The position numbers and the translations under genes were made by a program. A stretch of 64,000 bases of DNA from positions 3,526 to 67,525 of the forward strand of contig JAQTQS010000001.1 in NCBI GenBank assembly GCA_028712125.1, written 5' to 3'. Source of the stretch: Candidatus Altiarchaeota archaeon (GTDB lineage: Archaea > Altiarchaeota > Altiarchaeia > IMC4 > SCGC-AAA252-I15). Below, in pieces: positions 1,094 through 35,959 of the stretch; the first letter of the stretch is position 1; each line of letters starts with the position of its first letter. The notes under the pieces are model-generated. The model was not told the DNA's origin. It was given only the letters and a program-made list of their open reading frames with translations, and ran no database searches.

Positions 1094-1645
1094 ATGAGGG
1101 TGGTGGGCGTTGATTTGGCCGGCTGCAGCAGGAACGAGACGGGTGTCTGCGTTCTTACTGTTGAAGGCAGTCGCAAGCATGTTGCGACGCGCCTGTTGCT
1201 TGAGGATGCTGAGATTCTATCGGCGATAGAGGAGTCAAAGCCAGACCTTGCTGGAATCGACGCCCCGCTGACGTATGCGGGGGTCAGGAGGGATTGCGAC
1301 GAGCTTCTTCGCGAGTATGGCGCTCTGCCTGCGACTCTGCCCGGGATGGAGACGCTCGCAAGGAGGGGCTGTATTATCGCAAAGGAGCTTGCTTTGCGAA
1401 AGGTGCCGTTTATAGAGGTTTACTCAAAGGCCAGCGCGAAGATACTGGGCGTTTACAGCAAGGACGAGTTCTCGATGCAGAAGAGCATGATGGCGCTTGA
1501 CTTGGACGGGGACATCAACACGAGGCTGCTTACACGGGACGAGCTTGACGCCGTCAGCGCGGCAATGACGGCTTATCTGCACCTGCTCGGCCGTACGTCC
1601 CTTGTCGGCGGCGAGGGCGGGTCGATTGCGATACCGTCTGTTTAG
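1094..1645 (+). CDS. predicted RNase H-fold nuclease (DUF429/COG2410-like), hypothetical
   Basis: The N-terminus MRVVGVDLAG...GVCVL and the GIDAPL motif resemble the DUF429 predicted-nuclease family. This is a weak, memory-based assignment. Confidence 0.35.
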   Translation: MRVVGVDLAGCSRNETGVCVLTVEGSRKHVATRLLLEDAEILSAIEESKPDLAGIDAPLTYAGVRRDCDELLREYGALPATLPGMETLARRGCIIAKELALRKVPFIEVYSKASAKILGVYSKDEFSMQKSMMALDLDGDINTRLLTRDELDAVSAAMTAYLHLLGRTSLVGGEGGSIAIPSV

Positions 1646-1680
1646 GTTATTACCCATGTTTCTCATATTTGTAATCTAAT

Positions 1681-2196
1681 ATGAAGGTCGTAGTTTTGCG
1701 TCTGGGGCACAGGTATGGCAGGGACAAGCGTTTGAGCACCCATGTCGCCTTGACCGCGCGGGCTTTTGGCGCGAAGGAGGTTGTCTTTGACGCTGTTGAC
1801 CGCGAGGTCGAGGAGAGTATCAATGCTGTCAGCTCGTCATGGGGCGGGTCCTTCAAGGTGTCGTTCACCGACGGCTGGAAGAAGTACGTGAAAAATTTCA
1901 AGGGCGACATAGTACATTTGACGATGTACGGGCTTCCTGTGGGCAAGGTCGTCGGGAAATTGAGGAAGTCCAGGAAGGACAAGCTTGTCATCGTGGGCAG
2001 CCAGAAGGTGCCTTCCGAGGTCTACCAGATGGCGTCATACAACGCGGCCGTCGGGAGCCAGCCGCACTCGGAGGTCGCGGCCTTGGCTGTTTTTTTAGAC
2101 CGGTTGTTCGCCGGCAGACAGCTTATGAAGAGGTTTGGTGGCAGGATTGAGATTGTCCCGCAGGCTCGCGGTAAGAGGATGGTTGAGAATCGTTGA
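1681..2196 (+). CDS. trm56: tRNA (cytidine56-2'-O)-methyltransferase aTrm56 (SPOUT)
   Basis: LRLGHRYGRDKRLSTHVALTARAFGA is the hallmark aTrm56 (COG1303) N-terminus. The ~170 aa size fits. Confidence 0.75.
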   Translation: MKVVVLRLGHRYGRDKRLSTHVALTARAFGAKEVVFDAVDREVEESINAVSSSWGGSFKVSFTDGWKKYVKNFKGDIVHLTMYGLPVGKVVGKLRKSRKDKLVIVGSQKVPSEVYQMASYNAAVGSQPHSEVAALAVFLDRLFAGRQLMKRFGGRIEIVPQARGKRMVENR

Positions 2197-2206
2197 TTTC
2201 CAGTTA

Positions 2207-5200
2207 CTATCTTTCTTCTTCCAGGGCTGTGAGGAAGTCTTCCCTTTCCGGGGCCCTGTGGCCGCCGCCTTCCAGTATGGCATCTTTCAGCCCCCGGTCT
2301 TTGTCGCGCCTGTCGCGGATTTCGTCTGCGGACATGCCCCGGTCCATCATTGACTGCTCGCCCTGTGTGGCGCTTCGGGTTGTTGCCTCTATTGCGCCGT
2401 CGCGCATGCTGGATAGCTCGTCTTTAGTGTAATTCTGGCTCATGCCGTGGGCCGGGTCGCTGCTCATCCTTACCATGCGGTCCATCTGGTCGTCTGTCAT
2501 GTTAGCGAGCTCGCCCCGCGTCTGGATGCCCGCCTTCTCAAGGTCTTTGGCTGTGTCCTCTGTCATCCCATGGTGGATAGTCCCGTTCCTGTCGGCCCAG
2601 TCTACCGGGTTTTTCTCCTTCTCAGCGCTTGCAGCCTCTAATGCCGCGTTTCTATCGCCCCCGGTCTCGTATTGAGCCAATTGGCGGTCGGTCTCGGCCT
2701 TGTTGCCGTCGGTCTTGGCGTCTTCCCTTAGGCTCTTGTTCGCCAGGCTCTTGTCCTCGAACTTTTCCCCATAATCGCCCGTGCTGTATGTCTTGTCTAT
2801 GCCGTCCCTTACTTTGTCGAAGTGGTCATTTGACTTTTCAAGCATATCGCCCGTCTGGGTCTGCATTCCTAGGTCTCTCTTCAGCTGTTGTTCCCAGCCC
2901 GGTTGTGTAGTGTCTATGCCTGCGATATATGCAAGCTCCTTTTTGTCGCCGTCTTTTAGCTTGTCGAAGCCCTCGCCTTTATTGTCTATGACATTATTTA
3001 TTTTATTTCGCGAGCGCTCTGATTCACGCCGCGATCGCGCGCCACCGCCCCGTTTCTCTAGGGCCGCGACCTGCGAGTCCGTGAGATTTAATGCCTTCTG
3101 CGCCGCCCTGCGGGCTAGGGAGCCTATCAATGCCCTGTTCTTCCCGACCGGGCCGCCGCTTTGGAACTGGCCTTTGCCTTTCAACTTGTCGGTGTAGCGG
3201 CCGAATTCCTGGTCGCCTAGGGCCTTGTGTACTGCCGCTCTTGCCGCATGTTGTACGCCGGTCTTGATGGCCTGTCCGAGGCCTTTCCGGCTTTCGATGC
3301 GCGAGAGGGCGCTCACGCTTCGCCCCATTGCCGTGCGTTTCATCATGTCCCATGCGGCTTTGGCTGTTGTTTGCACCTTGCGCAGGGCCGCGCCGCGGCC
3401 GGTCTTGGATGCGAGTAATCCGCCTGCCGCAAGTGTGGCCGCTGCTGCGGTGGCTGGCATTAGCAGGCTCAGTCCCGCGCCAGCCGCAAGCGCAAGAGCG
3501 CCGATTCCTAGGGTCTTGCCTACGCCTTTAATGGATAGATTTTTAGCTCCCTGCCATGCCTTGCCTATGGCTGCTTTGCTGGCCTGCAGGCCGCTTTGGA
3601 CTGCCATCTTCCCGCCGGCATATGCGGCTCCGGCAAGGGCGCCGATGGACCTGCCTTTCGCCATCAATGCGGCCGGTAGGGAGCTTATTTTATCGCCGAT
3701 GGACTTGCCAAGCCCCTGGAACATGTCGCGCCCGGTAATCAGGCCTCCGGTCGCCTTTTCCATGACCTTGCCCAATGCCTTTCCGATGGAGACCTTTGCG
3801 GCGAATCTCAGGCCCTTGGCCATGAGGCCTCCGATTTTTCTCCCGAATCCGGCCTTAAGCCCTATGCCGAGCGCGCGGCCTAACTGGCCTCTCAACAGGG
3901 CTTTTCCTGCGACCCTGCCGGTACGTCCTAAGAGGCTCCATCTTCCTGCTACTGCGCTCGGGCTGAACGGGGAGACAGCCGACTTCATCAGTGACCCGCC
4001 GCCCATAAAGCCTTTTCCGACGCTGGAAAGGCCGCGTTTGCCCATCCCGTATGCCATGGACCCGAACGCGCCCGCTCTCCCCCTGCCGGAAATTTTAGCT
4101 GATGCGTAATCGCCCAAGGCCTTGCCTAAGCCGATACTAGCCGCACCCCGTGTTAAGGCCGAACTGCCCATCATGCCGAACATCATGCCCCTGCCGGTTC
4201 CTCCGGCCATTCCTGACGCCATGGATGCGGCCCGGGATACTGTTTTTGCAATGCCGCTGAACGGCCGCTTGACTGCTTCGACGAAACCCGCCTTCCCGCC
4301 GAACACCGCCGCGCCCATAAGGGCTTTCCCGCCCTTCAGCATCTTGCTGGCTGAGAATTTGGCTGCGGCCATTGACATTGCCGACGCCCCCTTTCCCTGC
4401 ATCAGGCTTCCGGCGGCGACCATTGCCGTGCCCCAGAAGCCAGGTACGAACTGGCCGGCGGATGTGATTATGCCGCCGATGACGTTGAGCATTCCTGACA
4501 GCGCGAGCGGTGAGAAGCTTACCATCATTGACATGAGGATGAGCAGGAAGAGGCTGCTGAAATAGTTGCTGGATGACCGGGTGTATGGCAGCAGCGCCAA
4601 TGCGCAGGCCAGCCACATCGCCATTATGAAGGGGGTGAAGATGAATATGAATGTGGCCTTGAACATCTTCCTTCCGGCGTTCCTTGTGAACTCGAACATG
4701 TAAAGGCTGACTGTGAGGGGGAATATTATGCCGAGGAATGTCGTTGCTGTGTACCTGAACATCGCGACCATTATGGCGAGAATCCAGAATACCGCGGTTA
4801 GTGCAAGCACGATAATCGCCATCATGACCTTGGGCATGTCGAATGCGCGAAGCATGTCCTCGTTCGGCGGCCATAAGTCGGGGAAGGGCATGATGTTGTG
4901 CGTGAATGCGAAGATTAGCCTGTCACGTATGGTGCCCGCGCCCGGTATGATGGACACGTCTATGACGTTGAGCACGCCGTCTGTCAATGAGCCGCCAACT
5001 ATCAGGAGCACTTGGTACACTATCGGCGAGAGGCTTGCCAGTACCATCCCGATAAGCAGCTTGAGGAGCATCTGCTTGGCCCTTGCCCGGTGCGGCGGGC
5101 TGTTGGCCATGAACACAAGGTAGGCCCCCAGGAAGACGAGTGCGAGGAGGAACATGGGGTACATTATGGCGAGGAACAGGCGTATCATGTTTGTGAGTGC

Positions 5201-5515
5201 GTCGGCCCGGACTCCTGCGGCCGGAAGCATGCATATTCCATTGTAGACTGAGGTGAATCCGGGAGCTTCGAACGTTGGGTTTATGAGGAGGGCGCAGAAC
5301 AGCGATGAAACCAGGAATCCGTTGATTACCTTGATTATGGCAAGGGCTATCCATGCGAATATGACGCCCATGAACCCGATTACTGCGGATAGCAGGAGGC
5401 CCACGTATGTCGTCCATGGCAGTGCGAGCACCGTGGGCGGCAGGACTGATATGACGAACAACAATGTTAAGGCTAATGCTATGAACCGCCTTCCATTGCA
5501 ACCCTTTATTTTCAT
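2207..5515 (-). CDS. polytopic membrane protein (~10 TM helices at the N-terminus) with a ~430-aa Gly/Ala/Lys-rich low-complexity region and a ~250-aa acidic C-terminal tail; unknown family
   Basis: The start is assigned to ATG 5515-5513 (MKIKGC...), which overlaps the TGA stop of the upstream giant gene as ATGA. The track's earlier start at 5617 lies inside that upstream gene. The N-terminal third is hydrophobic with many predicted helices. The middle is repeats of GKALG/GKxxG type. The C-terminus is D/E/K/R-rich. Confidence 0.6.
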   Translation of the reverse strand: MKIKGCNGRRFIALALTLLFVISVLPPTVLALPWTTYVGLLLSAVIGFMGVIFAWIALAIIKVINGFLVSSLFCALLINPTFEAPGFTSVYNGICMLPAAGVRADALTNMIRLFLAIMYPMFLLALVFLGAYLVFMANSPPHRARAKQMLLKLLIGMVLASLSPIVYQVLLIVGGSLTDGVLNVIDVSIIPGAGTIRDRLIFAFTHNIMPFPDLWPPNEDMLRAFDMPKVMMAIIVLALTAVFWILAIMVAMFRYTATTFLGIIFPLTVSLYMFEFTRNAGRKMFKATFIFIFTPFIMAMWLACALALLPYTRSSSNYFSSLFLLILMSMMVSFSPLALSGMLNVIGGIITSAGQFVPGFWGTAMVAAGSLMQGKGASAMSMAAAKFSASKMLKGGKALMGAAVFGGKAGFVEAVKRPFSGIAKTVSRAASMASGMAGGTGRGMMFGMMGSSALTRGAASIGLGKALGDYASAKISGRGRAGAFGSMAYGMGKRGLSSVGKGFMGGGSLMKSAVSPFSPSAVAGRWSLLGRTGRVAGKALLRGQLGRALGIGLKAGFGRKIGGLMAKGLRFAAKVSIGKALGKVMEKATGGLITGRDMFQGLGKSIGDKISSLPAALMAKGRSIGALAGAAYAGGKMAVQSGLQASKAAIGKAWQGAKNLSIKGVGKTLGIGALALAAGAGLSLLMPATAAAATLAAGGLLASKTGRGAALRKVQTTAKAAWDMMKRTAMGRSVSALSRIESRKGLGQAIKTGVQHAARAAVHKALGDQEFGRYTDKLKGKGQFQSGGPVGKNRALIGSLARRAAQKALNLTDSQVAALEKRGGGARSRRESERSRNKINNVIDNKGEGFDKLKDGDKKELAYIAGIDTTQPGWEQQLKRDLGMQTQTGDMLEKSNDHFDKVRDGIDKTYSTGDYGEKFEDKSLANKSLREDAKTDGNKAETDRQLAQYETGGDRNAALEAASAEKEKNPVDWADRNGTIHHGMTEDTAKDLEKAGIQTRGELANMTDDQMDRMVRMSSDPAHGMSQNYTKDELSSMRDGAIEATTRSATQGEQSMMDRGMSADEIRDRRDKDRGLKDAILEGGGHRAPEREDFLTALEEER

Positions 5516-8500
5516 TTCTTCCCTTTCCACTCGTCCCACATGTCCTGGAAGTCCATCCGTCTGGCCTCGAAGAATCTGTAGGACATCAGGGCTAGGAACA
5601 CTACAATTATGACCCATGCATTCTCTAGCAGGTAGTCTAGGAAGTTCTTGTAAGCGACCTCGATTTCAAGCTCCTTTAAGGAGGTTTGGTAGCCGGCTTG
5701 CCCAGATGCCGGGCCGTATCCGAAGTAGTCTGCATTGAAGGTTATGCGCCTGCTTCGCTTTTCAATACAGGTCGGTGCCCGTATTATCTGCCCTATCGAG
5801 TATATGCCGGAATATTGGGTGTAGGGGAAGTTGAAGTCTAACTTATACCGTCCCATGCGGAGTTCGCTTCCATCGCATTGGTCTGTTCCAGTGACCCTGA
5901 AGCAGATGTGGGTGGGGGTTTCACTTACCGGCTCGACATCCAGTTCGACTGGGTGTCGCATGTACACGTTCTTCCAGACCGAGCCGACCGCCTCTGTAAT
6001 GTGGTCGTTGCCGCAGCTTAATGCCTGGCCGTCTTCAGTCCTGAACGGGTGTATTTCTATGTGCCTGAAGTCGCTGTATATCCGTAGGATTGAGTCCTCG
6101 AACTTCTCGGACTCTATGCTCTGTGTGCTGAAATTAAGCGTGTAGAGCTTTGTTTGGGGGCTGAATGCTATCTTGGAGGAGATGGCACTCTCCTCTTCGG
6201 CAACCTTTTTAAACTCGAATGTCTCGCTGCCCGAAGCCTGTTTTCCGCCCATGCTCGTTTCGGATTCTTGCAGGTCTTTCGGCTGGGAGTAGAAGCCCAC
6301 AAGGTCCCAGTATTTGGCTTCATCCTCGTGGAAGTTCCTGAACAGCCCGACCTGCTCCTTGGACGGGTCTTTGAACCATGTCCCGTCGTCGCATGTGAGC
6401 TGCACGTCCCAGCTGTAAGGCTCTCCTATAGCCATGAAGAATGTCCGCGTCTTGCCGTTCTTTTCCTGGATTCTGCCTTGTGTCCCGTAGTAGTATTTCT
6501 TGAAGGGGTTTATCATGTAGTGCCAGTAGTCTTCTGACCCTCCCTTGCATGGTTTGAGGAAAAGCATGTCCTGCATCTTGCTGTTTATCGTTATCACCTC
6601 TTTTGATATCGTCGAGTCGAGTATGTAGAGCTCGTGGATTGGCGGGTAATCCTTGGCTATGAAGTTCACCATTGTGGAATCCGGGACTACCATGTCAAAT
6701 CCGCCAATCAGGTCGTTTTGTCGGAGGTCAATAGAGCCTATGCGCAACGAGCCATTAACGCGGTATCTGCGATAGTCTGCGTCGCTTGGAGAGCCACCCC
6801 AGTTGTAGTCGATGAACCCGTACACATTCACGAATGCGTGAGAGCCGGGATTGCCCAGCGGACGGCTTGTTTCAAGGTGGCCGCCGTAGGGTTTGGCATA
6901 AACCGAGGAGGTGTCGTTGATTTCCTCAAGCGCGTCGGGTCTGGCTTGCTGAAAGCCGCCTAACGGGTCTTCGCTAGATACGGGGTAAGCACAGGGATTG
7001 TGAGTCCACGCACCCCAGCAATGGATGCACCCCCTCCACCGGTAAATTACCTGGCAATTGACGACTATTGGACCAGTTGGTGTGTTGTGAACCTCAGTGC
7101 CCAAATCCAGCGGATAGTTACAATTTTCCCATAGTATGCAGGTTCCGTTGGGATAGTACCCTGACGGGCAGCATGGGTAAGTACCTACCTCGCACTCCCC
7201 GCAGGGACTATCGCAATCCTTGTAATAAAAACCATTCATGGGAAATTCACCGTCATCACATAGTTTATAATAATCTATCCAATGGCAGTATTGGTATGCG
7301 TTACATCCGTACCAAAAGCATTCCTGGGCTAGCGGCTGTCGGATTATTGTATGGAGGGCCGAATAATTCATTGTAATTTGGAATGATGTGGTTTGGTCAT
7401 TCAGATTGTGAGTAAGCACACTCGCCCCAACATGCAAAAAGTTCCAAGGGGCTTCAAGCGGCAGGACGTTCGGCCCGGCTGGCATCTTGCCATTTGCGCC
7501 GGCGCCGCTGTTTTCGGATATCATATAGTCGAACCATGCAAGAACCGGATATGAGAGGTACTCAGGTTTCATTAACAGCTTCCTGCAGGACTTGCCGCAT
7601 GATTCTGGCGGTTCGGGGGTCTTCCCATCAGGATTTTGCAGTGCTCCATCGCAAACCCAGTATGGGTTTTCGCCGCTCTGGGGAGCTATACGATTCGTCC
7701 AATCGCCCGGACCGGTAAGGGTTGCGTAATTCGGGTAACAGTTGCAGCCTTCCAGGTTGCTGCACCAGTAATGCTGCGGCGTCCAGACATTACAACCGGT
7801 TGCACCATCAGGATTAGGGCCTGTTTGAGACCAGATATCATCGACAATGACATCCTCTCTGACCCGGTCGTTCCCAAGGTTCTTCGACTCGTCCCAGATG
7901 CCGCCTTGGTCGCGCATATAGTCCCATGCGTAGGGACATATCTGTGTGTTAAAGTATGAGCCGAAATCAGGATCTGAACTCATCCAACCGCCATCGTCAC
8001 AACCGCTTCCGATAAATTTCTGGCAGTACTCGGTGGCAGTGTATGTTCCTCCTGCTTCGGTCTCGTTCGGGAGGTTTCCTCCTGCTGCAAAGTGGAACCA
8101 TATGGGTCCGCCGCCGCGTTCTTTAACGCCGGACAGCGCATTCCCGCGCGTACGGGTGTAGATGGTTGCATCCTTTTGGATTACGGGAGTTCCCGGCGCC
8201 GGAACGCACTCTATCCCGTTCCACAAGAGGGCATCTGCCGGACAGCAAGCCTTGTTCCAGTTTCCGCATCCGCCAAAGCAGTGGACATAGGGATTTGCTG
8301 TACAATTCAGGCCAGGCATGCATTCGTCGTTGTTCCGGCAGCCGCCTTCAGCCTTGCCGCAACGGCAGTCATTCCCCCACCGGTTGCCGTTCTGTATCTT
8401 GTATCGGCAGTAGTCGTTATGGTGTATCTCCCTCTGATATACGCCGCACGTCTGGCAGCATCCGGCTGACGTATCCCAGGTGGTGCCGTCCTCGCAGCAG

Positions 8501-11172
8501 AAGTCCTCGCCCCAAATTGTGCCGTCGCAATGGCCGCTTATACATTTGGCGTCAAACCAGCCGCAGTCGCCGTGGCCGTTGCCGAGCATATCACCCTGGT
8601 TGTCGGTCTCAGCTGCGCATAAATTGTCTTTAGCTTCAAAGTCTGGTATTATGTGGAATTCAGGCGTCACCTTGAATACCATGTCCCAGAGCATCCTCTT
8701 GTTGAACTGGCGGTAGTACTTCAGCTCGGACCTAGTCTCGCCCTCGTTGAACGGGTCTATCCGCCACATGTCTCCGACAACCGTGGAACCGCCGGGATTG
8801 TGGTAATACAGCGGATCCTCGTCATTCCGCTTTAAATCGCCCTGATGGGCCGGCCGCGTAGCCTCGACCTTCGGTGCATTCCAATTTGTGGTCTTTGGGC
8901 TTACAAACCAGTAACGGTCGGTAGCAGCAGGGTCGAAATAATCGATAAGCCTGGGAGGGGACAGCTTCCAGTAGATTATGGGATTGTTGACGGTATTTTC
9001 TAAAGGCCATGCGGCGGGCGATCGCCAATCCGTGACTTTTGGATATTCCGTGTAATTGTAGATTCTGTTTTGCATCGTGTAGTTATACGTTGTGCCGCCG
9101 TGCCAAGGTCCTTGCGTATAGTAATCAACCGCACCGGCACAACCAGAGCTGGTTCCGTCACTGCTATTGCCCCATGGAATTAGGTAAAACTTAGTGGACC
9201 AGCAAGTATTCGGGCGGCAACCTAGGTTAAAGGCTAAACGATAGTCGAATCCTTTCCAGTGTACTGTCGAATGGTTCACAAACGACGCGCTGACGTTGGA
9301 GCTGATTGATTCTATCGACTCGTTGACGATGTGCTTTCGGTCTGGAATACCGAGCTCGAAGTCGAACGCCTTGTCGTCGTACTCCTCGTCAGTCCCGAAA
9401 AACCAGCTCAACCAGCCGCCCCTCTTCCACGGATTCCCGTTGTCATCCTCGTCGTCAATGTCGTTAAACTGGAAGTAGTCGGCTGTCATGCCGGGCGTTT
9501 CGGACGGATCCGGCTGCTCCCACTCGAAGTAACCGCACTTCTGGCTCATAAGCGGATTTCTGAGCGAGCTGTCCTGGAAGCCCATTTCGTAGGAGGCAGC
9601 AAGCGCGGCCCCATAGCTGCATGTGAAATTCCCGGGACCGCACTTGTCGCTCCAGAAGGCGTCTGAGTCTGTCCGGCAGCCGAGGAGCCTGCCCGCGGAC
9701 TTTAAATTCCAATCCCGGAGCGTATAGACGTTCGATTCCCGTATCCTTTGCAGGTCTGACGGGTTTACCATGTGGGTTGAGCCTCTCGACTGCATCGACG
9801 TGGTGTAGTAGTACATCAAGCCCAAGTTCGCGCCATGCCTGGATTTGTTCAACACGGTTATGTAAACCATGGGGAAGTCAAATAGCTTGCCGGCGTCGAT
9901 GGCTTCCCACTGGCAGTCATTAAAGCCGACGTCTTTAATCTGCGCATCGTAAGAGGTGGATGTGGTGGTCCATTGGAGGCGAACGTTTTTGCACATGTTT
10001 GTAACGTTCACGTTGTAAGGCAGGTCGCAAGCGCGCACAAGTATGTAATCCATGCAGTAGTCGTAGTACCCCTCGTCGGTTGGCGTCCCGACCCCCGTGA
10101 CCGGGTTGACGCAACCCTGGGGGGTGTTCCGGCAGGCGTCCATGGCAGCGGCGATGTCCTTGCGGACATCGATTAACTCCCTGTCATCAACCGCTATGGG
10201 CGAGTAAACCCCATCAACAACGGTCAGGTTCAGGTACTCGCTTGGGAGCGTCCCATCTTCATAGGCCCGGTCTACCTTCATCAGGACCAGATACCTCTTC
10301 GGCTCGTCCTCCTCGCTGGAGCGGGCGCAATAGGGTACGTAATCGTTCTCGATGGCAGTCTTCCTGTCGCGGTTGGCGGCATTGTCCTCGCAGTAGCTGG
10401 CGCTATAGGTGAACTGGACTTCATCGTCGGTAATGCCGGTAACCTCTCCGCATTCGATGGTGCCGTCGTTACAAACCTTGACTGCGCGTATGTAACTCTT
10501 GAAGCTGTCCGGAGAAACTGGCATCGGGTCGTGGTCGACATCGAAGCCCATCGTCCCGCGCCCAAGCAACTTGCCCATTTTGCTGACGTTCAGACGCACA
10601 TACCAGACTGTCCCGCCGGCCCCGGCGCCGGACTCGCTCGGCGGGTCGACCGACCCGCGGAATCCGTCAACGTAATCCGGCACGTATTCGGGCGGCTTGC
10701 CATTGCACGTGTCTTTCATGGGGGCGCAGCAGCACAATGATTTCTTGAACGATCCCTCGTACTCGCCTGCCATGCAGCTTGCATCCCCGTTAATGTCGTG
10801 CATCCAGCCTTCGGGGCACATGAATTCCGACTTGTCGTCGCTGTTGGAGTAGATGCACTCCCCCCCGTCAGCGTCCGGGTCCATCGGGTCGTCCAACGTG
10901 GACCTGACGCAAGTCCCGTCTCCGCTCGCGTCGCACGTGAGGAAATCACAGCACTTCGCATCCGGCGGAAAGTCGGGCAGATTCTGGCAGAAGTCGTTGC
11001 CATCCGGCATCTCCCGCTGGCAGTACACGCCGCAGTCCCCGGGCTGGCAGTCCGGGCTTATACTTTCCGGCAGCGATTCATCGCACGGTGTCTGGGCGCT
11101 AGCGATTTGACATGCTGCGAGAAGGAGACCGGCTATTGCAAGGAAGGCGATTGACAGTTTCCGTGCATTCAT
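5512..11172 (-). CDS. giant (1886 aa) secreted cysteine-rich surface protein with a C-terminal TM anchor; unknown family
   Basis: The N-terminal signal peptide is MNARKLSIAFLAIAGLLLAACQIASA. There are over 100 Cys in clustered C-x-C / CC motifs, and the protein is Trp/Tyr/Asn/Asp-rich with many N-x-S/T sequons. The C-terminus has one hydrophobic helix (AWVIIVVFLALMSY) followed by a basic tail. The ORF is uninterrupted. Confidence 0.7.
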   Translation of the reverse strand: MNARKLSIAFLAIAGLLLAACQIASAQTPCDESLPESISPDCQPGDCGVYCQREMPDGNDFCQNLPDFPPDAKCCDFLTCDASGDGTCVRSTLDDPMDPDADGGECIYSNSDDKSEFMCPEGWMHDINGDASCMAGEYEGSFKKSLCCCAPMKDTCNGKPPEYVPDYVDGFRGSVDPPSESGAGAGGTVWYVRLNVSKMGKLLGRGTMGFDVDHDPMPVSPDSFKSYIRAVKVCNDGTIECGEVTGITDDEVQFTYSASYCEDNAANRDRKTAIENDYVPYCARSSEEDEPKRYLVLMKVDRAYEDGTLPSEYLNLTVVDGVYSPIAVDDRELIDVRKDIAAAMDACRNTPQGCVNPVTGVGTPTDEGYYDYCMDYILVRACDLPYNVNVTNMCKNVRLQWTTTSTSYDAQIKDVGFNDCQWEAIDAGKLFDFPMVYITVLNKSRHGANLGLMYYYTTSMQSRGSTHMVNPSDLQRIRESNVYTLRDWNLKSAGRLLGCRTDSDAFWSDKCGPGNFTCSYGAALAASYEMGFQDSSLRNPLMSQKCGYFEWEQPDPSETPGMTADYFQFNDIDDEDDNGNPWKRGGWLSWFFGTDEEYDDKAFDFELGIPDRKHIVNESIESISSNVSASFVNHSTVHWKGFDYRLAFNLGCRPNTCWSTKFYLIPWGNSSDGTSSGCAGAVDYYTQGPWHGGTTYNYTMQNRIYNYTEYPKVTDWRSPAAWPLENTVNNPIIYWKLSPPRLIDYFDPAATDRYWFVSPKTTNWNAPKVEATRPAHQGDLKRNDEDPLYYHNPGGSTVVGDMWRIDPFNEGETRSELKYYRQFNKRMLWDMVFKVTPEFHIIPDFEAKDNLCAAETDNQGDMLGNGHGDCGWFDAKCISGHCDGTIWGEDFCCEDGTTWDTSAGCCQTCGVYQREIHHNDYCRYKIQNGNRWGNDCRCGKAEGGCRNNDECMPGLNCTANPYVHCFGGCGNWNKACCPADALLWNGIECVPAPGTPVIQKDATIYTRTRGNALSGVKERGGGPIWFHFAAGGNLPNETEAGGTYTATEYCQKFIGSGCDDGGWMSSDPDFGSYFNTQICPYAWDYMRDQGGIWDESKNLGNDRVREDVIVDDIWSQTGPNPDGATGCNVWTPQHYWCSNLEGCNCYPNYATLTGPGDWTNRIAPQSGENPYWVCDGALQNPDGKTPEPPESCGKSCRKLLMKPEYLSYPVLAWFDYMISENSGAGANGKMPAGPNVLPLEAPWNFLHVGASVLTHNLNDQTTSFQITMNYSALHTIIRQPLAQECFWYGCNAYQYCHWIDYYKLCDDGEFPMNGFYYKDCDSPCGECEVGTYPCCPSGYYPNGTCILWENCNYPLDLGTEVHNTPTGPIVVNCQVIYRWRGCIHCWGAWTHNPCAYPVSSEDPLGGFQQARPDALEEINDTSSVYAKPYGGHLETSRPLGNPGSHAFVNVYGFIDYNWGGSPSDADYRRYRVNGSLRIGSIDLRQNDLIGGFDMVVPDSTMVNFIAKDYPPIHELYILDSTISKEVITINSKMQDMLFLKPCKGGSEDYWHYMINPFKKYYYGTQGRIQEKNGKTRTFFMAIGEPYSWDVQLTCDDGTWFKDPSKEQVGLFRNFHEDEAKYWDLVGFYSQPKDLQESETSMGGKQASGSETFEFKKVAEEESAISSKIAFSPQTKLYTLNFSTQSIESEKFEDSILRIYSDFRHIEIHPFRTEDGQALSCGNDHITEAVGSVWKNVYMRHPVELDVEPVSETPTHICFRVTGTDQCDGSELRMGRYKLDFNFPYTQYSGIYSIGQIIRAPTCIEKRSRRITFNADYFGYGPASGQAGYQTSLKELEIEVAYKNFLDYLLENAWVIIVVFLALMSYRFFEARRMDFQDMWDEWKGKK

Positions 11173-11179
11173 TTTTAGA

Positions 11180-11245
11180 CTTGCGTATATTAATGCCGAC
11201 GCCGCATGGCTTATAATTTATAATATAATATACTATTAATTTTCG
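11180..11245 (-). promoter_or_regulatory. AT-rich putative promoter (TATA-like boxes) upstream of the giant surface-protein gene
   Basis: The 116-bp intergenic region between the S2P stop and the giant-gene start is very AT-rich (tataatttataatataatatac, ttaatatac) in an otherwise GC-rich locus. Confidence 0.3.
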
Positions 11246-11288
11246 CCCTATATAACCGTCATAAACACCACCGCCAGGTTTGAGAAAA

Positions 11289-15197: not shown

Positions 15198-15261
15198 TTT
15201 TTCTTTCTTTGAACCCAAGGGCCTTTCTTTCTTTTTTCGCAAAAAAGAAAGAAAGGGGCTT
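15198..15261. repeat. 64-nt direct repeat, copy 1 (the tRNA 3' trailer); copy 2 is 15324-15387 inside the intron
   Basis: tttttctttctttgaacccaagggc[c/a]tttctttcttttttcgcaaaaaagaaagaaaggggctt occurs twice, 126 bp apart, and the copies are identical except for one substitution. Copy 1 abuts the tRNA discriminator base and supplies a T-tract on the minus strand, which looks like a terminator. Confidence 0.85.
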
Positions 15262-15305
15262 GCGGGGGACGAGGTTCGAACTCGCGCAGGCCTTCGCCAC
15301 AGGAT

Positions 15306-15387
15306 AACTTAAGTTCCTTGGGTTTTTTCTTTCTTTGAACCCAAGGGCATTTCTTTCTTTTTTCGCAAAAAAGAAAGAAAGGGGCTT
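15306..15387 (-). other. tRNA-Leu intron (82 nt) containing two hairpins
   Basis: The interruption falls between anticodon-loop positions 37 and 38. The intron holds the perfect 16-bp inverted repeat CCTTTCTTTCTTTTTT-GCG-AAAAAAGAAAGAAAGG and a second hairpin CCTTGGGTT...AACCCAAGG. Confidence 0.6.
15324..15387. repeat. 64-nt direct repeat, copy 2 (the core of the tRNA-Leu intron)
   Basis: See copy 1. This copy forms the 5' two-thirds of the intron. Confidence 0.85.
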
Positions 15388-15448
15388 CCTAAGTCCTGCT
15401 CATTTGACCAACTCTGACACCCCCGCGTAAGTAAAATTGGGATGTTCC

Positions 15449-15460
15449 CGCTTTTTATCG
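15449..15460 (-). promoter_or_regulatory. putative TATA box for tRNA-Leu
   Basis: On the minus strand ATAAAAAG lies 25-32 nt upstream of the tRNA 5' end at 15426. Confidence 0.35.
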
Positions 15461-15818
15461 GGACTTCATATTATAGGGATTCCAGTGAATAAAAGCCTAT
15501 TACGAGGCTTCTGTATGCGTTTTTTCGTTTTCCAAGCCCGCTGGTTTGGGTTGGAGTATCAAGCACTGTGCTTGATACTAAGGAGAATCAAACACCCTGC
15601 TTGATTCTCCTCTTTCAGCCTTTTCAGTAAGGTATTTAGACAACGAAAAATAGAAGACGCAAGCCCTAAAAACAAAAAAACGTCTACATGCCCTGTTGAA
15701 TCCTTACTCTGAGAAAGCCAAAACCTATCAAGAGGCTAGGTTGCACCAGAACAAACAAACGACTTACAGAAACAAACGAAAGGGCTTGACGTTGTATCCG
15801 GTTGGGTGTACATTAATC

Positions 15819-16289
15819 CTACTTTGGCTTTAATTGCTTATCTTTGGCTGACTTTCTGCATGGAGATTTACTTTTTTTAAATGCTGTTAAGATAGTTTTT
15901 TGGTCAAAGGAATTAAGCTCTAGCCTATTGAATTGCTGAAATACATAAACCTGGTATCTAGGAGTTTCTTTCTTTTCTTTGGATTTCTTTTTTATCAGCT
16001 TCTTTAAGGTATCTAGTATTATCGTAATAATGCCTGCCTTGGCAAGTTCTCCTAAAAAATCAGAAATAATTTCTGGACCACACTCATGCCGGATTAATGT
16101 AATACGAATTCTGTCTTTTGGACTAATTACTTCAATATTCTTGTAATCAATATCCTTTACGTTTAAATCGAGTTTTTCAAGCTCCTGAACAAATTCATCA
16201 AATTGCGCTCCTTTTAAGTCTAAGTAGTGATCTTTTGTTTTGAACCATATTGCCACACCCGGACTTTTACATTTATCACAATAGTCCAT
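15819..16289 (-). CDS. hypothetical protein (island)
   Basis: The ORF is AT-rich with a Lys-rich C-terminus and no motif. Confidence 0.4.
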   Translation of the reverse strand: MDYCDKCKSPGVAIWFKTKDHYLDLKGAQFDEFVQELEKLDLNVKDIDYKNIEVISPKDRIRITLIRHECGPEIISDFLGELAKAGIITIILDTLKKLIKKKSKEKKETPRYQVYVFQQFNRLELNSFDQKTILTAFKKSKSPCRKSAKDKQLKPK

Positions 16290-16464
16290 AAATAGAATAT
16301 TCTACCTAAAGAAGATAAGACAGTTTTCGAGTAAACCACCCCGAAGGGAATAGACGTCCGTCAGGATAGGTAGGACATATTATCCTTGGGAAGTCGATGC
16401 TGTATGCCCGGTTTAGCCGTTAAGGGCGTCCAGCATTTAGCAGGGAATAGAAGCTATTCGCTGG

Positions 16465-17040
16465 TTAGCTTTTGGTTGAATCCGGGCTTGAACCGTGCTT
16501 TGTTTTTGATTCTAGGCTTGAATCGCCTTGAAAATATGAGGCGATTTTATCTTGAACCGTTCGCCTAGTAAAAGTCGCACCGTATTCTTGATAATGCTCT
16601 AAATTATCCCAGTTGGTGACAACAAAGAAGTAATCAGCATAATTCCCTAAGACAACCATCTTAGGCATAAGCTCTTTTTCGCTTTTTCGGGTGGCTTCGA
16701 CCTCCACAGCTATCCAGCGACCTTCATCCAAACCGAATGTAACGTCCGGTAATCTCGTAAGATTGTATTCTACCTTAGGAGTGTATTTCCGAATCTCGTC
16801 GTATATTATGTTCCAAAGGATGAAATGGGCGTCCGACTCGCCAGTCTCATTCCTTACCAGAAAAGCAGTCCCATTGCCTTGAGAAAACCCCGGATCCCGG
16901 ACTTCATGAAAACCCAGACTTTTAAGTATGTCAAGCCGGACCTTATTCAACTCACTCTTAACATGAATCTTCCGCTCTGTATTAAACCGCGTATGGTCTA
17001 TACCTGCTATCCTCGCCATAAATATAACACTAGACGACAA
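16465..17040 (-). CDS. hypothetical protein, possible PD-(D/E)xK nuclease fold
   Basis: DVTFGLDEGRWIAVEVEATRK gives a D...EVE..K spacing like restriction-endonuclease-like cores. This is a weak assignment. Confidence 0.3.
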   Translation of the reverse strand: MSSSVIFMARIAGIDHTRFNTERKIHVKSELNKVRLDILKSLGFHEVRDPGFSQGNGTAFLVRNETGESDAHFILWNIIYDEIRKYTPKVEYNLTRLPDVTFGLDEGRWIAVEVEATRKSEKELMPKMVVLGNYADYFFVVTNWDNLEHYQEYGATFTRRTVQDKIASYFQGDSSLESKTKHGSSPDSTKS

Positions 17041-17168
17041 ACGACTTGTCGATTAAGAGAAAGCAAATTGACATTATCCAAAAGTACAACTCAAAAAATA
17101 CAAACTAGCATCGTACGAAATACGATAATACGAAAAAGGCAAATTTAAGGCCGCATGTAACTTAACTA

Positions 17169-17747
17169 ATGGGAAATAATATGCAAATAGCATGTTTGGG
17201 TTGGGGCTCTCTAGTTTGGGATCCTAGGGAACTGCCCATAAGAGGGATATGGTTTGAAGACGGCCCCTTCTTACCGATTGAATATGCACGACAATCCAAA
17301 GACGGGAGAATCACTCTTGTTATTGTTGAGGGTAGAACCTTAGTTCGTTCTTTGTGGACACTCCTCAATTGCAACGATTTAACTGGAGCAAAAAAAGCAT
17401 TAGCAGATAGAGAAGGGATAAAAGAGGATGATATCCCTAAAGATATTGGCTTTTGGCCTAGTGATGATAAGAAAAGCGGTAAATGTACTGATTCCATACC
17501 TTTGTGGGCTAAATCTCACTCTCTTGATGCAGTTGTATGGACAAACTTACCCCCTAGATTTGATGGCATAAATGGCAAAATACCAACTGTAGACGAAATA
17601 CTAAATTACTTTAACAGTAGTCTAATGCCAATAGAAAAAAGACGTCTTGCGGAGGAGTATATTACGAAAACCCCGCCCCAAATAGATACAGAATATAGAA
17701 GGGAGATGATATTAAGATTAAACTGGATAACTCGGCGTACGTGTTAA
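17169..17747 (+). CDS. hypothetical protein, ChaC/gamma-glutamylcyclotransferase-like N-terminus
   Basis: IACLGWGSLVWDP resembles the ChaC/GGCT motif (FGYGSLMW). This is a weak assignment. Confidence 0.3.
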   Translation: MGNNMQIACLGWGSLVWDPRELPIRGIWFEDGPFLPIEYARQSKDGRITLVIVEGRTLVRSLWTLLNCNDLTGAKKALADREGIKEDDIPKDIGFWPSDDKKSGKCTDSIPLWAKSHSLDAVVWTNLPPRFDGINGKIPTVDEILNYFNSSLMPIEKRRLAEEYITKTPPQIDTEYRREMILRLNWITRRTC

Positions 17748-17841
17748 GTAAGGGATATCCACACTACAGAGCATTATGTGTATCAGATAAAACAAGGGAT
17801 AAACTGGTGTTAGTGAAGGAATTATTTATACCTACTCCATA

Positions 17842-19392
17842 TTGCTATTTAGGTGTGGTGTGGGTCTGAAAGAATTAGGGGCTTCGGGGAGTAACTCTGT
17901 GGATTCTGGTGTAGAGAGGCGTATCCCAAATTTTAAGCTTGTAACTGTTATCTTATTTTTGTTATTTTCATTAGCTGTTCTATTCGCTATTCTGTTGTCT
18001 TATTTTATTTCATCTGATCTTGGAGATGTGGTGTTGGTAGTGTTTATATCATTGTTTCTATTACTCGCCATACCCGGTAGTGCTATTATCATTATAAGTT
18101 ATATCATAAGAGAGATTGTAAGAGAGAGAAGATTTGAAAAAGAACGAAAAGCAAAAGGATTAGTTAATTTTTGGGGTAAGTGGGGAACTCCAAAAGAGGT
18201 TGAAGAGTGGCGAAGGCAAGAGCAAGATAAACAACAAAAACAAAAAGAAACAATGGGGCTTGACATTGACATCATAGACAATACTGACGATATTCCCTTG
18301 AGGATTGAAAAGGCTCATGAAATATTAGAAAAATATTCTTCTGAACAACCGTATATTAAAGGTTTTGCAGAGAAGTATTACGATAGGATAGAGCAGTATA
18401 TTGATGATATTGGACATAATAAGATATTCCATAAAAGATGGTACCTTGATAAAATTAAAAGTTATGATAAGCAGAAATCCAAGAAAAATAAATGGGATAA
18501 CTGGGAGAAGTCCTTGATTGCGTCTAATAAAAAGGAATATCTCAAGGCTATTGAATTATGTTCAAATCCGTTGGAGATTCTTTTTCATTCTAATCCCCTG
18601 CCTTTCTATGTTAATGAAGAAACAACATCGTATAACGAAAAAAAATCGTATGAAGACAATGAATCATACTATAATGCTGAGCATCTGCGAGGGGAATTAT
18701 TAAAGTTACATCTGCTGCTACAAAATAAAGGATTTGATATTAATTACCACGATTTAGGGTTACTACTGCATTTCCAATTTCTAAATGCAGGGGCGAAACA
18801 ACTGTGGGATAAATTGAAATCTTACAACCCCTCTACATTTGATGATTATATTGATGCGTTTTTGGAGTATTATGGTGAATCCTATCTGCGGAAGACTACT
18901 CCATTTATAGTACTGCTGAGTTCAAAAGGTCTACCGTGTGACGATGAAATAGTGATTCTTGCATTAATGAATAAACATGACGAAGACGACCTCAAACAAC
19001 TTGAAAAATCGTTACTTTCTCGAAATAAAACAGTAAATATGTCTGAAATTGATGCATTATCTGGACACGAATTTGAGAGATTTCTAGGGCGGTTATTTGA
19101 TAAAATGGGTTACAAGGTGACTATAACCCCTAAATCGGGTGATTATGGAGCGGATTTGATACTCGAAAAACACGGTGAAAAGACTGCAGTACAGGCTAAA
19201 AAATGGGGCGGCAACATAGGAATTGAAGCGATACAACAGGTTGTGACATCTAAGAAGTTTTATGATTGCGATAAGGCTATGGTTGTTGGAACTAGCATCT
19301 ACTCAAAAAATGCCGAAGAATTGGCTTTTAGGAATAAGATAGAACTTGTTGACAGGGACAAACTACAGCGATTGATAGAGAAATACATGTAA
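17842..19392 (+). CDS. membrane-anchored protein with a C-terminal Mrr-type restriction endonuclease catalytic domain (Mrr_cat)
   Basis: There are two N-terminal TM helices. The C-terminal ~130 aa read HEFERFLGRLFDKMGYKVTITPKSGDYGADLILEKHGEKTAVQAKKW, which matches Mrr_cat on the D and QxK motifs. The middle ~300 aa are Lys/Asp-rich with no assignment. Confidence 0.6.
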   Translation: MLFRCGVGLKELGASGSNSVDSGVERRIPNFKLVTVILFLLFSLAVLFAILLSYFISSDLGDVVLVVFISLFLLLAIPGSAIIIISYIIREIVRERRFEKERKAKGLVNFWGKWGTPKEVEEWRRQEQDKQQKQKETMGLDIDIIDNTDDIPLRIEKAHEILEKYSSEQPYIKGFAEKYYDRIEQYIDDIGHNKIFHKRWYLDKIKSYDKQKSKKNKWDNWEKSLIASNKKEYLKAIELCSNPLEILFHSNPLPFYVNEETTSYNEKKSYEDNESYYNAEHLRGELLKLHLLLQNKGFDINYHDLGLLLHFQFLNAGAKQLWDKLKSYNPSTFDDYIDAFLEYYGESYLRKTTPFIVLLSSKGLPCDDEIVILALMNKHDEDDLKQLEKSLLSRNKTVNMSEIDALSGHEFERFLGRLFDKMGYKVTITPKSGDYGADLILEKHGEKTAVQAKKWGGNIGIEAIQQVVTSKKFYDCDKAMVVGTSIYSKNAEELAFRNKIELVDRDKLQRLIEKYM

Positions 19393-19460
19393 CTGTATAT
19401 AGAACCGTTATAGAGTAGTTGGTTTTGTTGTCCTTGTCGTTTTTATAGTCGTGTGTCCAC

Positions 19461-19913
19461 GTGTGTACGTGGAAGATGAGCAAGAATGCGCCTAGCAACC
19501 GGGTTAATGAGCTTCGTATTGAGAAGTTGTTCTTACGCAGGGGCTTGGTTGAGAAATTTGAGTCCAAACGGCTTCTGGGGCTTGAGGATTTTGTTTCCTT
19601 CATCTGGCACAACCACCCTAATTACGTTTCTGAGATTACCTTGGAGTTCTTGAAAGAGCTTATTGTATACCGTCGGGAGGGCAAACCCTATACCCAGGAT
19701 GATTGGGTTAGGTTTTGCGGTAGGATGAGTAGTAGCAAGAGCAGCAGGGACATTGTCTTTCGTAAGCTCCTGTATCTTGGCTTGATTGAGAAGCATAATA
19801 AGACTCTCATGCGGTATGAGGTTAGGTTAAGCGACAAGTGGATTAACTACCTAGATTATATGGCTCAGAGCTGGATAGCGATTTGCGAGAATGAACCGAA
19901 GGTCAAACGATAG
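19461..19913 (+). CDS. uncharacterised winged-helix-like family protein (paralogue 1 of 4)
   Basis: It carries the family motifs: an N-terminal W..(D/E)F(I/V)..(I/F)..P block and a C-terminal (K/R)LLYLGLIEKHNKT block, shared with 19891, 20264 and 41409. Confidence 0.45.
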   Translation: MCTWKMSKNAPSNRVNELRIEKLFLRRGLVEKFESKRLLGLEDFVSFIWHNHPNYVSEITLEFLKELIVYRREGKPYTQDDWVRFCGRMSSSKSSRDIVFRKLLYLGLIEKHNKTLMRYEVRLSDKWINYLDYMAQSWIAICENEPKVKR

Positions 19914-20301
19914 CGTATTCATGAAGGATGAGGTCTTTAGGAGGGCTGACGAGAAGCAGCAGATTAGGCTCTGGGAGTTCATGCAACTGTTCTTCCCGGA
20001 AGAAACTAACAAGAAGCAGTTCGAATGCGCATTCACGTTCATGAAAACGCTCTTGGAAGCCAAAAGCGTTGAAAGCACCGGATTAAGGGATATTGTCGAG
20101 TCGGACTATGTGAACCTTACGACTATCGTACTGCCGAAGCTGGAGAAATTCGGCTTAATCAGGGTTACCGGCGAGCGGGGCAAGGGCAAAACCTATAAAA
20201 TAGAGCTGGACAAAATCTTTTCAGACCGGATACGATACATGGGCTTGGAATGGTTCAGAATTTATGCTAAATACGGTGATGTCTATGGTGGGCAATCATG
20301 A
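19891..20301 (+). CDS. uncharacterised winged-helix-like family protein (paralogue 2 of 4)
   Basis: IVLPKLEKFGLIRVTGERGKGKTYKIEL matches the family. It overlaps the preceding gene by 23 bp. Confidence 0.45.
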   Translation: MNRRSNDSVFMKDEVFRRADEKQQIRLWEFMQLFFPEETNKKQFECAFTFMKTLLEAKSVESTGLRDIVESDYVNLTTIVLPKLEKFGLIRVTGERGKGKTYKIELDKIFSDRIRYMGLEWFRIYAKYGDVYGGQS

Positions 20302-20851: not shown

Positions 20852-20891
20852 TATTAGATTACCACGCTTCTGAATATACCCAACGTGTTTT

Positions 20892-21146: not shown

Positions 21147-21338
21147 CTTGCTTGATTCTTCCCTGAAAAGAAGTAGATTAAAACACCTTGCTTGATAGTC
21201 CGATAGGAGAAAAAGTAGTCTTGACGTTGAACCTAGCCGTGGTGGACGTCCGGTACGCCACTGGCGCTGTGGTATTGTGTGTTTTTTTGGGTGTCTTAGT
21301 ATATGAAACAGACGAATAAATATACTATTGCAGCAGGG

Positions 21339-35957: not shown

Positions 35958-35959
35958 TC

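Follow-up and report, generated by a model that had tools for sequence, protein, structure and literature searches.

A VirB6/TrbL-like membrane protein encoded beside a giant cysteine-rich ectoprotein in Candidatus Altiarchaeota

Of the core parts of type IV secretion, the inner-membrane platform VirB6 is the least understood, and to our knowledge it has been seen outside a complete type IV secretion system (T4SS) only rarely. Here we describe a pair of genes in a 64,000-nucleotide (nt) stretch of DNA from a Candidatus (Ca.) Altiarchaeota metagenome-assembled genome (MAG; assembly GCA_028712125.1, contig JAQTQS010000001.1, positions 3,526 to 67,525 of the forward strand; hereafter the window). 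The upstream gene encodes a cysteine-rich surface protein of 1886 amino acids (aa), which we call the giant, and the downstream gene a VirB6-like membrane protein of 1102 aa, which we call the partner. No literature linking Altiarchaeota with VirB6, TrbL or a T4SS was found in the library searched, and the combination of giant and partner is likewise undescribed in the papers found. As judged from sequence, the partner would be an extended VirB6 of known layout and the giant a member of an orphan family.

The partner shares with canonical members of the VirB6/TrbL superfamily (A. tumefaciens VirB6, R388 TrwI; PF04610) a polytopic helical membrane domain of about 300 aa, whose first hairpin resembles the VirB2 pilin and carries a basic cytoplasmic loop. 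Unlike these proteins, it is 1102 aa long owing to a basic/charged extension of 700 aa, falls below the Pfam thresholds, lacks VirB4, VirB3, VirB8 and free pilin genes as neighbours, and is fixed in a housekeeping neighbourhood in obligate pairing with the giant gene. Similar in layout are the extended VirB6 proteins of the Rickettsiales (RvhB6; Anaplasma VirB6-1 to -4; PMC2653234, PMC7648143), which also join a VirB6 domain to a long hydrophilic C-terminal extension, have apparently diverged in function from canonical VirB6, and have undergone a lineage-specific paralogue expansion that is sometimes in tandem, as are the 4-5 copies of Ca. Altiarchaeum hamiconexum (loci L006/L007). The Rickettsiales copies, however, share an operon with virB3 and virB4, and their extensions consist of tandem-repeat domains, whereas the window holds a single VirB6-like copy without virB3 or virB4, and Altiarchaeal tandems occur only in Ca. 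A. hamiconexum, again without virB4. They are also bacterial, lack an upstream giant Cys-rich partner, and have extensions without detectable similarity to the one described here. CedA and TedA of the Ced and Ted DNA-import systems (PMC9905601) are, by description, archaeal, chromosomally domesticated VirB6-like proteins with 6-7 transmembrane (TM) helices and an N-terminal region homologous to their cognate VirB2-like pilin, and in these respects resemble the partner. Their genes differ in clustering with a VirB4-like ATPase and pilins, and there is neither a giant ectoprotein nor a long extension.

For the giant, comparisons are more distant. It shares with the hamus subunit and archaeal S-layer proteins (PMC4460559) a Sec signal peptide, large size, acidity, probable glycosylation, a surface location and, for the hamus, an origin in Altiarchaeota. 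The hamus subunit is a 97-kDa, Gly/Thr-rich protein with S-layer-like N-terminal similarity and no C-terminal TM helix (PMC4460559), whereas the giant is a Cys/Trp-rich, TM-anchored protein of 212 kDa, and neither it nor its orthologues matched an S-layer family in Pfam, NCBIfam or the PDB. An identification of the giant as the hamus subunit was rejected on size, composition and topology as described for the latter (PMC4460559). Nor does the giant carry a PGF-CTERM/archaeosortase signal, as its C-terminus (...LENAWVIIVVFLALMSYRFFEARRMDFQDMWDEWKGKK) contains no PGF motif and matched no PGF-CTERM model. The F plasmid provides a functional analogy only. Its TraG, with a VirB6-like N-terminus and a large C-terminal domain, and its Cys-rich TraN stabilise cell-cell contact, but TraN, at about 600 aa, resides in the outer membrane, in contrast to the 1886-aa giant anchored in the cytoplasmic membrane.

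Both genes are encoded on the reverse strand, the giant at 5512..11172 (212 kDa, isoelectric point (pI) 4.7; NCBI PHG85_00060) and the partner at 2207..5515 (117 kDa, pI 10.1; PHG85_00055). The NCBI gene calls agree with both open reading frames (ORFs), and the coordinates given in an initial annotation made from the sequence alone were confirmed, as was its ATGA junction at 5512-5515 (reverse strand), where the TGA stop of the giant shares letters with the ATG of the partner. The partner start is nevertheless ambiguous, with in-frame GTG codons at -19 and -28 and an ATG at -106.

We next asked how firmly the two genes are associated by scanning the fetched loci (numbered from L001) with one profile built for the giant (A2) and another for the partner family (A6). 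A word-indexed homologue search returned just 3-4 relatives per protein, those of the partner from Altiarchaeota only, and exhaustive HMMER was needed to recover the family. The giant lies directly upstream of the partner on the same strand in the window and in L001, L003, L004, L005, L006/L007, L009-L012, L025 and L026, and a metagenome scan seeded by the C-terminal module of the giant yielded five new loci (L015-L019), all with the partner directly downstream. Every giant-family locus with readable downstream DNA was thus paired with a same-strand partner (17/17), which bears out, from the side of the giant, the co-occurrence that the initial annotation had proposed to check; loci seeded by the partner carried a giant upstream in 12 of 15 cases. 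The L002 sequence is truncated within the giant. Identity among orthologues ranges from 48-52% down to 22% (L004) for the giant and from 57% down to 32% for the TM domain of the partner, whose residues 524-1102 are 31-33% identical to those of L003.

The surroundings of the pair are those of a chromosomal locus. It is flanked by housekeeping genes, DUF429 and aTrm56 on one side and an M50 peptidase, the acetolactate-synthase small subunit, aIF2-alpha and PAC2 on the other, and the order PAC2, aIF2a, ACT, M50, giant, partner is the same in L001, L003 and L004. The M50-to-Trm56 synteny of the pair extends to L001, L003, L004, L009, L011, L012, L017, L018 and L026. Outside this context, the pair was found in L005 and in L006/L007 (Ca. 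Altiarchaeum hamiconexum), indicating that it travels as a unit. Its GC content (0.54 for the giant and 0.58 for the partner, versus 0.53 for the window) is native, and the 64-kb window contains no integrase, relaxase, VirB4 or VirD4 gene; together with the housekeeping neighbours, these properties place it on the native chromosome rather than on a mobile element. A VirB3 or free pilin gene was also not present in the 64-kb window. On this sequence evidence, we regard the pair as a native, vertically inherited, chromosomal operon specific to Altiarchaeota.

The initial annotation had further described a dedicated two-gene module behind its own AT-rich promoter, and both parts of that description held up: the genes are co-oriented and tightly linked, and a promoter-like AT-rich element, TAATAGTATATTA, is present at 11226-11238 (reverse strand), upstream of the giant only. 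It lies within the 116-nt spacer between the M50 peptidase gene and the giant gene (11173..11288, reverse strand; 34% GC), occurs as a single exact copy in the window, and has near-identical counterparts (AATAGTATATTA-type motifs) upstream of the giant in L001, L002 and L003. We infer that it represents an archaeal TATA-like promoter. The ATGA overlap itself proved not to be conserved. Junction spacing is -19 or -4 in the window, -1 (TAGTG) in L003, and +1, +7, +36 or +79 nt elsewhere, so that translation of the two genes in fixed proportion, as originally suggested, could apply at most to some lineages.

In the available sequence around the 17 pair loci, no VirB4, VirB3 or pilin gene was detected, either by similarity to the L008 T4SS proteins or from the listed gene annotations. 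Paralogues of the partner occur inside full T4SS-like clusters with VirB4 at two other loci, L008 (4269-17394) and L027 (9507-24036). Each cluster opens with a VirB2-like pilin and a long VirB6-like protein of 1589 or 1813 aa. After some small ORFs come, in this order, another VirB6-like protein of 657 or 915 aa, one of ~310-357 aa, one resembling TraC/PrgI, VirB4 (DUF87/AAA_10; 760 or 764 aa) and two further pilins. Two PMT_2 glycosyltransferase genes precede the cluster at both loci, and no published description of an Altiarchaeota T4SS-like cluster was found. In a neighbour-joining (NJ) tree of 26 membrane domains, which is crude and without bootstrap, the giant-linked partners form one clade, apart from the two T4SS-cluster orthogroups, the long proteins of L013 and the tandem set of Ca. 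A. hamiconexum. The orthogroup of the window is strictly coupled to the giant and never adjoins VirB4.

These paralogues bear on the earlier suggestion that homology of the ectodomain to a known S-layer or adhesin family, together with independent occurrence of the second gene, would speak against a dedicated pair. Of these two halves, the latter was observed, in that paralogues without a giant exist (L008, L013, L027); since the giant-linked partners form their own clade, the second gene is independent of the giant only in the form of paralogues. L013 (10001-21757) encodes two stand-alone VirB6-like proteins in tandem (1727 and 2188 aa) among housekeeping genes, with neither a giant homologue nor VirB4, indicating that the VirB6-like domain is the N-terminal module of several very large Altiarchaeal proteins. 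At L006 (5429-11044) and L007 (3-6285), from Ca. Altiarchaeum hamiconexum IMC4 and a related MAG, a 523-aa giant homologue precedes a tandem array of four to five short paralogues of VirB6-like type (359, 320, 320, 347 and 325 aa), with no VirB4 nearby. TPR/SNAP-type repeats were present in the C-terminal extension of 5 of 58 sampled VirB6-like members; the extensions are accordingly diverse, and sometimes protein-interaction modules.

The assignment of the partner to VirB6/TrbL runs through its family. Exhaustive HMMER with a trimmed alignment of the membrane domain (A5) identified 354 cluster representatives at E ≤ 1e-3, of which 298 reach E ≤ 1e-10, with lengths of ~150-2000 aa and the domain near the N-terminus. 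A search for related genome loci with the same narrow alignment yielded only 3. All named members belong to MAGs of Altiarchaeota, 'Methanobacteriota archaeon' or 'uncultured archaeon', and several come from a single genome. Within a 58-member sample, 18 matched the Pfam family T4SS_pilin (best E = 4.7e-7) and 9 matched TrbL (best E = 3.1e-6). Protein P0055, recovered by the profile of the window clade at E = 4e-33, aligns with positions 3-208 of 215 of Pfam TrbL (PF04610) at 25.9 bits, which equals the gathering threshold, and carries the NCBI name 'type IV secretion system protein'; P0134 matches T4SS_pilin at 30.2 bits, above the 26.6-bit cut-off, and a neighbour of P0142 has a weak TrbL_3 match. 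The window partner itself gave a T4SS_pilin (PF18895) match at aa 112-170 (E = 0.0055-0.025, 15-17 bits), in the same region as P0009, and no further match in Pfam, NCBIfam, PADLOC or PHROGs.

With hhalign, the trimmed family alignment (58 sequences) was compared with A. tumefaciens pTiC58 VirB6 and three other annotated alphaproteobacterial VirB6 proteins, giving a probability of 67% (P = 5e-5) over 264 collinear columns. In this alignment, the motif FPLT..LY.F(E/D).TR..G.K of the family falls on VirB6 GPLILTGYIFDRTRDIAAKW, and its basic hairpin loop on the first cytoplasmic loop of VirB6. An AlphaFold2 (AF2) model of partner aa 1-430, built from six sequences, was all-helical but of low confidence (predicted local distance difference test, pLDDT, 52), and a Foldseek search with this low-confidence model gave no significant hit, with four TrwI/VirB6 chains of the R388 stalk at ranks 2, 6, 7 and 9 among 350,542 PDB chains. 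Free-standing pilins of L008 align to the pilin-like part of the family profile. CedA1 is homologous to the N-terminus of CedA, and VirB2 and VirB6 are related likewise (PMC9905601); the pilin-like hairpin of the partner mirrors this reported relation. Membership of the partner family in the VirB6/TrbL superfamily is well supported by these comparisons, and that of the window partner is supported by its clear homology to the family. The initial annotation could place the partner in no described family; its membrane domain instead appears to be of the VirB6/TrbL superfamily, and the extended-VirB6 layout is a known one (PMC7648143).

The architecture of the partner follows from hydropathy and composition. 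At least seven hydrophobic segments lie within aa 7-350, with hydrophobic helices continuing to about aa 380, and the VirB6/TrbL-like membrane domain spans ~aa 30-380 (4376..5428, reverse strand, as are all features of the two genes below). Conserved motifs of this domain are NPT, SPPHRARAKQM, FRY, FPLTVSLYMFEFTRNAGRK and SPLALSG, the second of which forms the basic loop between the two helices of the VirB2-pilin-like hairpin (aa 112-170; 5006..5182). A Gly/Ala-rich basic low-complexity region follows at aa 401-800 (3116..4315), with 37.5% G+A and 61 K+R against 10 D+E, which gives a net charge near +51, and most family members have a similar G/A/K-rich stretch after their TM domain. A membrane domain continued by a hydrophilic extension recurs throughout the family, in proteins of up to about 2200 aa. 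The charged C-terminal tail (aa 801-1102; 2210..3115) matched no family and contains 51 K+R against 63 D+E. The proposed division into membrane domain, G/A/K region and charged tail was therefore sound, although the tail is mildly rather than strongly acidic. The repeats of GKALG/GKxxG type that had been read into the middle region did not materialise: GKxxG occurs four times and GKALG twice, which marks low complexity and not an array of repeats.

A cytoplasmic location of the 700-aa extension is probable, given the topology of A. tumefaciens VirB6, which has a periplasmic N-terminus and a cytoplasmic C-terminus (PMC7648143), and the positions of the basic loops under the positive-inside rule.

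In the giant, a signal peptide precedes a Cys/Trp-rich ectodomain of ~1815 aa, which leads into one C-terminal TM helix and a 20-aa cytoplasmic tail. Hydropathy places the two hydrophobic segments at aa 3-28 and ~aa 1844-1870, the latter the only C-terminal one, in agreement with the signal peptide and single anchor that had been described. The signal peptide covers approximately aa 1-26 (11095..11172), with cleavage inferred between MNARKLSIAFLAIAGLLLAACQIASA and the following Q. A reading of the giant as a lipoprotein, based on a lipobox-like LLAAC, was dropped because Cys21 is not conserved in orthologues. With 85 Cys (4.5%) and 53 Trp (2.8%), the protein is markedly richer in both residues than 20 Pfam-confirmed genes of the window (1.2% and 0.84%), and 55 of the 85 Cys are kept in orthologues. 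The enrichment noted at the outset is thus real, while the 'over 100' cysteines then reported overstate the count. Glycosylation sequons are likewise fewer than the dozens claimed, with 18 N-x-S/T sites against 12.5 expected from composition, and of two Cys peptides quoted as examples, the first was slightly misquoted (the true sequence is CFGGCGNWNK) and the second is exact, at aa 1320. Internal repeats are absent.

The densest Cys cluster, with 20 Cys, is located, as judged from Cys positions and their conservation in orthologues, at aa 852-989 (8206..8619), a region also present in L005_1212 and L009_1495, and a second cluster of 15 Cys, which holds CDSPCGECEVGTYPCCPSGYYPNGTC, at aa 1285-1394 (6991..7320). 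Further downstream lies a conserved C-terminal ectodomain module (aa 1417-1843; 5644..6924) with the motifs P-x-KK-Y/W and RN(F/Y)HEDExxY(W/Y)D, followed by the TM anchor (aa 1844-1866), assigned by hydropathy, and the conserved cytoplasmic tail SYRFFEARRMDFQDMWDEWKGKK (5515..5643). The tail pattern SYRFF...RMD..M..E..G.K, or in a fuller reading SYRFF...RMDF..MWDE..GKK, is kept in 10 of 10 aligned family members from different lineages. Such strong conservation suggests a conserved contact on the cytoplasmic or membrane side, for which the always-adjacent VirB6-like protein would be the obvious candidate.

Size variants of the giant help to delimit its core. The L005 version has 1212 aa and covers profile positions 896-1890, that of Ca. 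Altiarchaeum hamiconexum (L006) has 523 aa and covers positions 1427-1890 only, and the L009 giant is split into ORFs of 871, 1495 and 141 aa. From these short and split versions, the conserved core of the giant comprises its last ~460 aa together with the TM helix and tail, and the C-terminal ectodomain module is the sole part of the giant found both in the 523-aa L006 homologue and in all other members. The N-terminal 1400 aa, Cys clusters included, are a variable 'payload'. The L009 split reflects either a real modular split or assembly frameshifts. At that locus (1591-9921), there is a 4-nt overlap between the ORFs of 1495 and 141 aa, and an unrelated Cys-rich ORF of 266 aa, homologous to L005_289, lies amid the split giant.

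Searches with the giant gave no match in Pfam, NCBIfam, PADLOC or PHROGs, in keeping with the absence of any established domain noted earlier, and a sequence-profile search of the PDB with its alignment returned nothing usable, only low-complexity noise where it returned anything. Library searches detected no similarity to TraN, PrgB, adhesin or S-layer families. Our sequence analysis thus supports a secreted, C-terminally anchored Cys/Trp-rich ectoprotein without a recognisable domain. The original suggestion of a surface structure or adhesin is conjectural, and no adhesin or S-layer homology was detected.

Taking these observations together, the reading we favour, with moderate confidence, is that the pair constitutes a T4SS-derived membrane platform, the partner, coupled to a giant ectoprotein with type-I anchoring. 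The giant would be exported by the Sec pathway and held in the cytoplasmic membrane by its one C-terminal TM helix, while the VirB6-like partner would oligomerise into a membrane platform that binds the giant by its TM anchor and tail and displays it at the cell surface, much as VirB6 carries VirB5/VirB2 in the R388 T4SS stalk. The product would be a contact or surface structure of T4SS origin, genetically separate from the VirB4 ATPase cluster encoded elsewhere in these archaea. A physical interaction of giant and partner, and a biological role in contact, adhesion or transfer, are what this arrangement would predict. A broader proposal, that the Altiarchaeota VirB6 module is a general VirB4-independent platform of which one orthogroup anchors or assembles a giant, envelope-spanning Cys-rich protein, is distinctly more speculative, and we consider it doubtful. 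It draws on the size of the family (at least 354 cluster representatives), on the presence of several paralogues in each genome and on the many members whose extensions measure 1000-2000 aa, and, if correct, it would amount to a hitherto unrecognised apparatus for the cell surface or intercellular contact in a double-membrane archaeal lineage.

Several results weigh against the coupled-platform reading. The window partner has no Pfam TrbL match at E ≤ 1, and its pilin match lies below the 26.6-bit threshold; the window clade alone reaches a probability of only 11.5% (P = 0.0026) against VirB6 in hhalign, and a PDB sequence-profile search with the partner alignment did not return VirB6. The Foldseek matches to TrwI/VirB6 are not significant (E 0.8-1.5, TM-scores 0.23-0.35) and come from a poor model (pLDDT 52), and an AF2 model of giant aa 700-1886 from two sequences had a pLDDT of 27 and gave no usable fold. 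The 64-kb window lacks VirB4, VirB3 and a free pilin, which leaves any T4SS-like activity hypothetical. In two lineages, the junctions of +36 and +79 nt would permit separate expression of the two genes. Finally, the C-termini of the extended VirB6 proteins of Anaplasma (Rickettsiales) are seemingly surface-exposed (PMC7648143), so the cytoplasmic placement of the partner extension may be wrong.

Alternatively, the pair could be an accessory module of an Altiarchaeal DNA- or protein-transfer T4SS (Ced/Ted-like) encoded elsewhere, with the giant as a recipient-recognition or mating-pair-stabilising adhesin and the partner as an extra VirB6 channel subunit working with a distant VirB4 and pilins. 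F-type systems offer an analogy, in that a Cys-rich surface protein, TraN, and an extended VirB6-like protein, TraG, act in mating-pair stabilisation. Chromosomal clusters with pilins, two VirB6-like proteins, a TraC/PrgI-like protein and VirB4 do exist in this group (L008, L027), one genome (GCA_043813075.1) carries the pair (L009) as well as other VirB6-like genes (L013), and the archaeal Ced and Ted systems are themselves domesticated T4SSs (PMC9905601). However, the pair adjoins VirB4 in 0 of 17 loci, the L008 and L027 clusters have two VirB6-like orthogroups of their own and no giant homologue, and no similarity of the giant to TraN, PrgB or an adhesin family was detected. We therefore consider this account possible but rather unlikely. 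A simpler view would make the giant a main envelope protein, S-layer-like or periplasm-spanning, with the VirB6-like gene a mere neighbour. Its topology (signal peptide, large acidic glycosylatable ectodomain, C-terminal TM helix) is S-layer-like, the locus lies among housekeeping genes, and S-layer proteins reach ~210 kDa (PMC4460559). Yet adjacency is kept in at least three genomic contexts and down to 22% identity of the giant, and even the 523-aa version of Ca. A. hamiconexum, reduced to the C-terminal module and anchor, still precedes VirB6-like genes. With no S-layer family match or PGF-CTERM signal in the giant, and a hamus subunit that is a different, 97-kDa Gly/Thr-rich protein, we judge mere neighbourhood improbable.

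Two further explanations were considered. VirB6-like genes are typical of conjugative elements, and a low-GC island with an Mrr-type nuclease gene lies 4 kb away, as might be expected if the pair were a decaying remnant of an integrated conjugative element. Both ORFs are intact, however, and the same housekeeping synteny is maintained in many lineages at identities of 22% to 57%, which largely refutes this explanation; the pair also has native GC, no integrase, relaxase, VirD4 or VirB4 nearby, and no relatives on viral contigs, the last of which likewise led us to reject a viral origin. The chance of a conjugative remnant thus seems very slim. That the overlap is a frameshift artefact splitting one longer gene is a concern with any MAG, and one for which the three-way split of the L009 giant (871, 1495 and 141 aa) could be cited. 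Independent assemblies nonetheless all stop after ...KGKK or ...GFK and continue with a separate partner ORF that has its own N-terminal signal-like helix, and the partner family exists as stand-alone proteins of ~300 to 2200 aa, reducing the likelihood of an artefact to almost nil. More generally, with synteny conserved and the ORFs intact across many independent assemblies, coincidental adjacency, a conjugative remnant and a frameshift are all unlikely.

If the coupling of giant and partner is physical, the pair would be a concrete and testable case in which a platform from a secretion machine now serves as the base of a surface structure. It would also provide a first handle on the envelope biology of Altiarchaeota, with their double membrane and the question of how their hami are anchored. 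What is unusual is the combination of strict coupling, chromosomal fixation and absence of a VirB4 link with a phylum-specific VirB6-like expansion, in which one orthogroup is strictly tied to an orphan giant of the cell surface and genetically separated from the VirB4 motor.

Other features of the window were recorded alongside the pair. The low-GC island (15200-21300; GC 0.40 versus 0.53 for the window) consists mostly of unannotatable ORFs and is probably foreign or integrated DNA; it includes a gene (17842-19392, forward strand) for a 516-aa protein that has an Mrr_cat restriction-endonuclease domain at its C-terminus. A 191-aa ORF at 16465-17040 (reverse strand), which matched nothing in Pfam, PADLOC or PHROGs, is 41% identical over 157 aa to the C-terminal residues 604-759 of the L008 VirB4-like ATPase. 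The common region is PD-(D/E)xK nuclease-like (PDVTF...VEVEATRK) and not ATPase, and the ORF was rejected as a VirB4 remnant because the match is restricted to this C-terminal part. The similarity suggests that Altiarchaeal VirB4 ends in a nuclease-like domain, for which a separate gene exists as well. A second Cys-rich secreted protein (21846-22904, reverse strand; 352 aa, 26 Cys, 7.4%) has an N-terminal signal with a lipobox-like LSGC, no Pfam match and, as far as checked, no sequence kinship to the giant. Ordinary genes at 32922-39518 (reverse strand) and 47906-50647 (forward strand) encode a membrane-bound hydrogenase/Mrp-like cluster of complex-I-like subunits (Complex1_49kDa/30kDa with a NiFeSe_Hases match, Proton_antipo_M twice and NADHdh) and a 913-aa DUF3160 protein.

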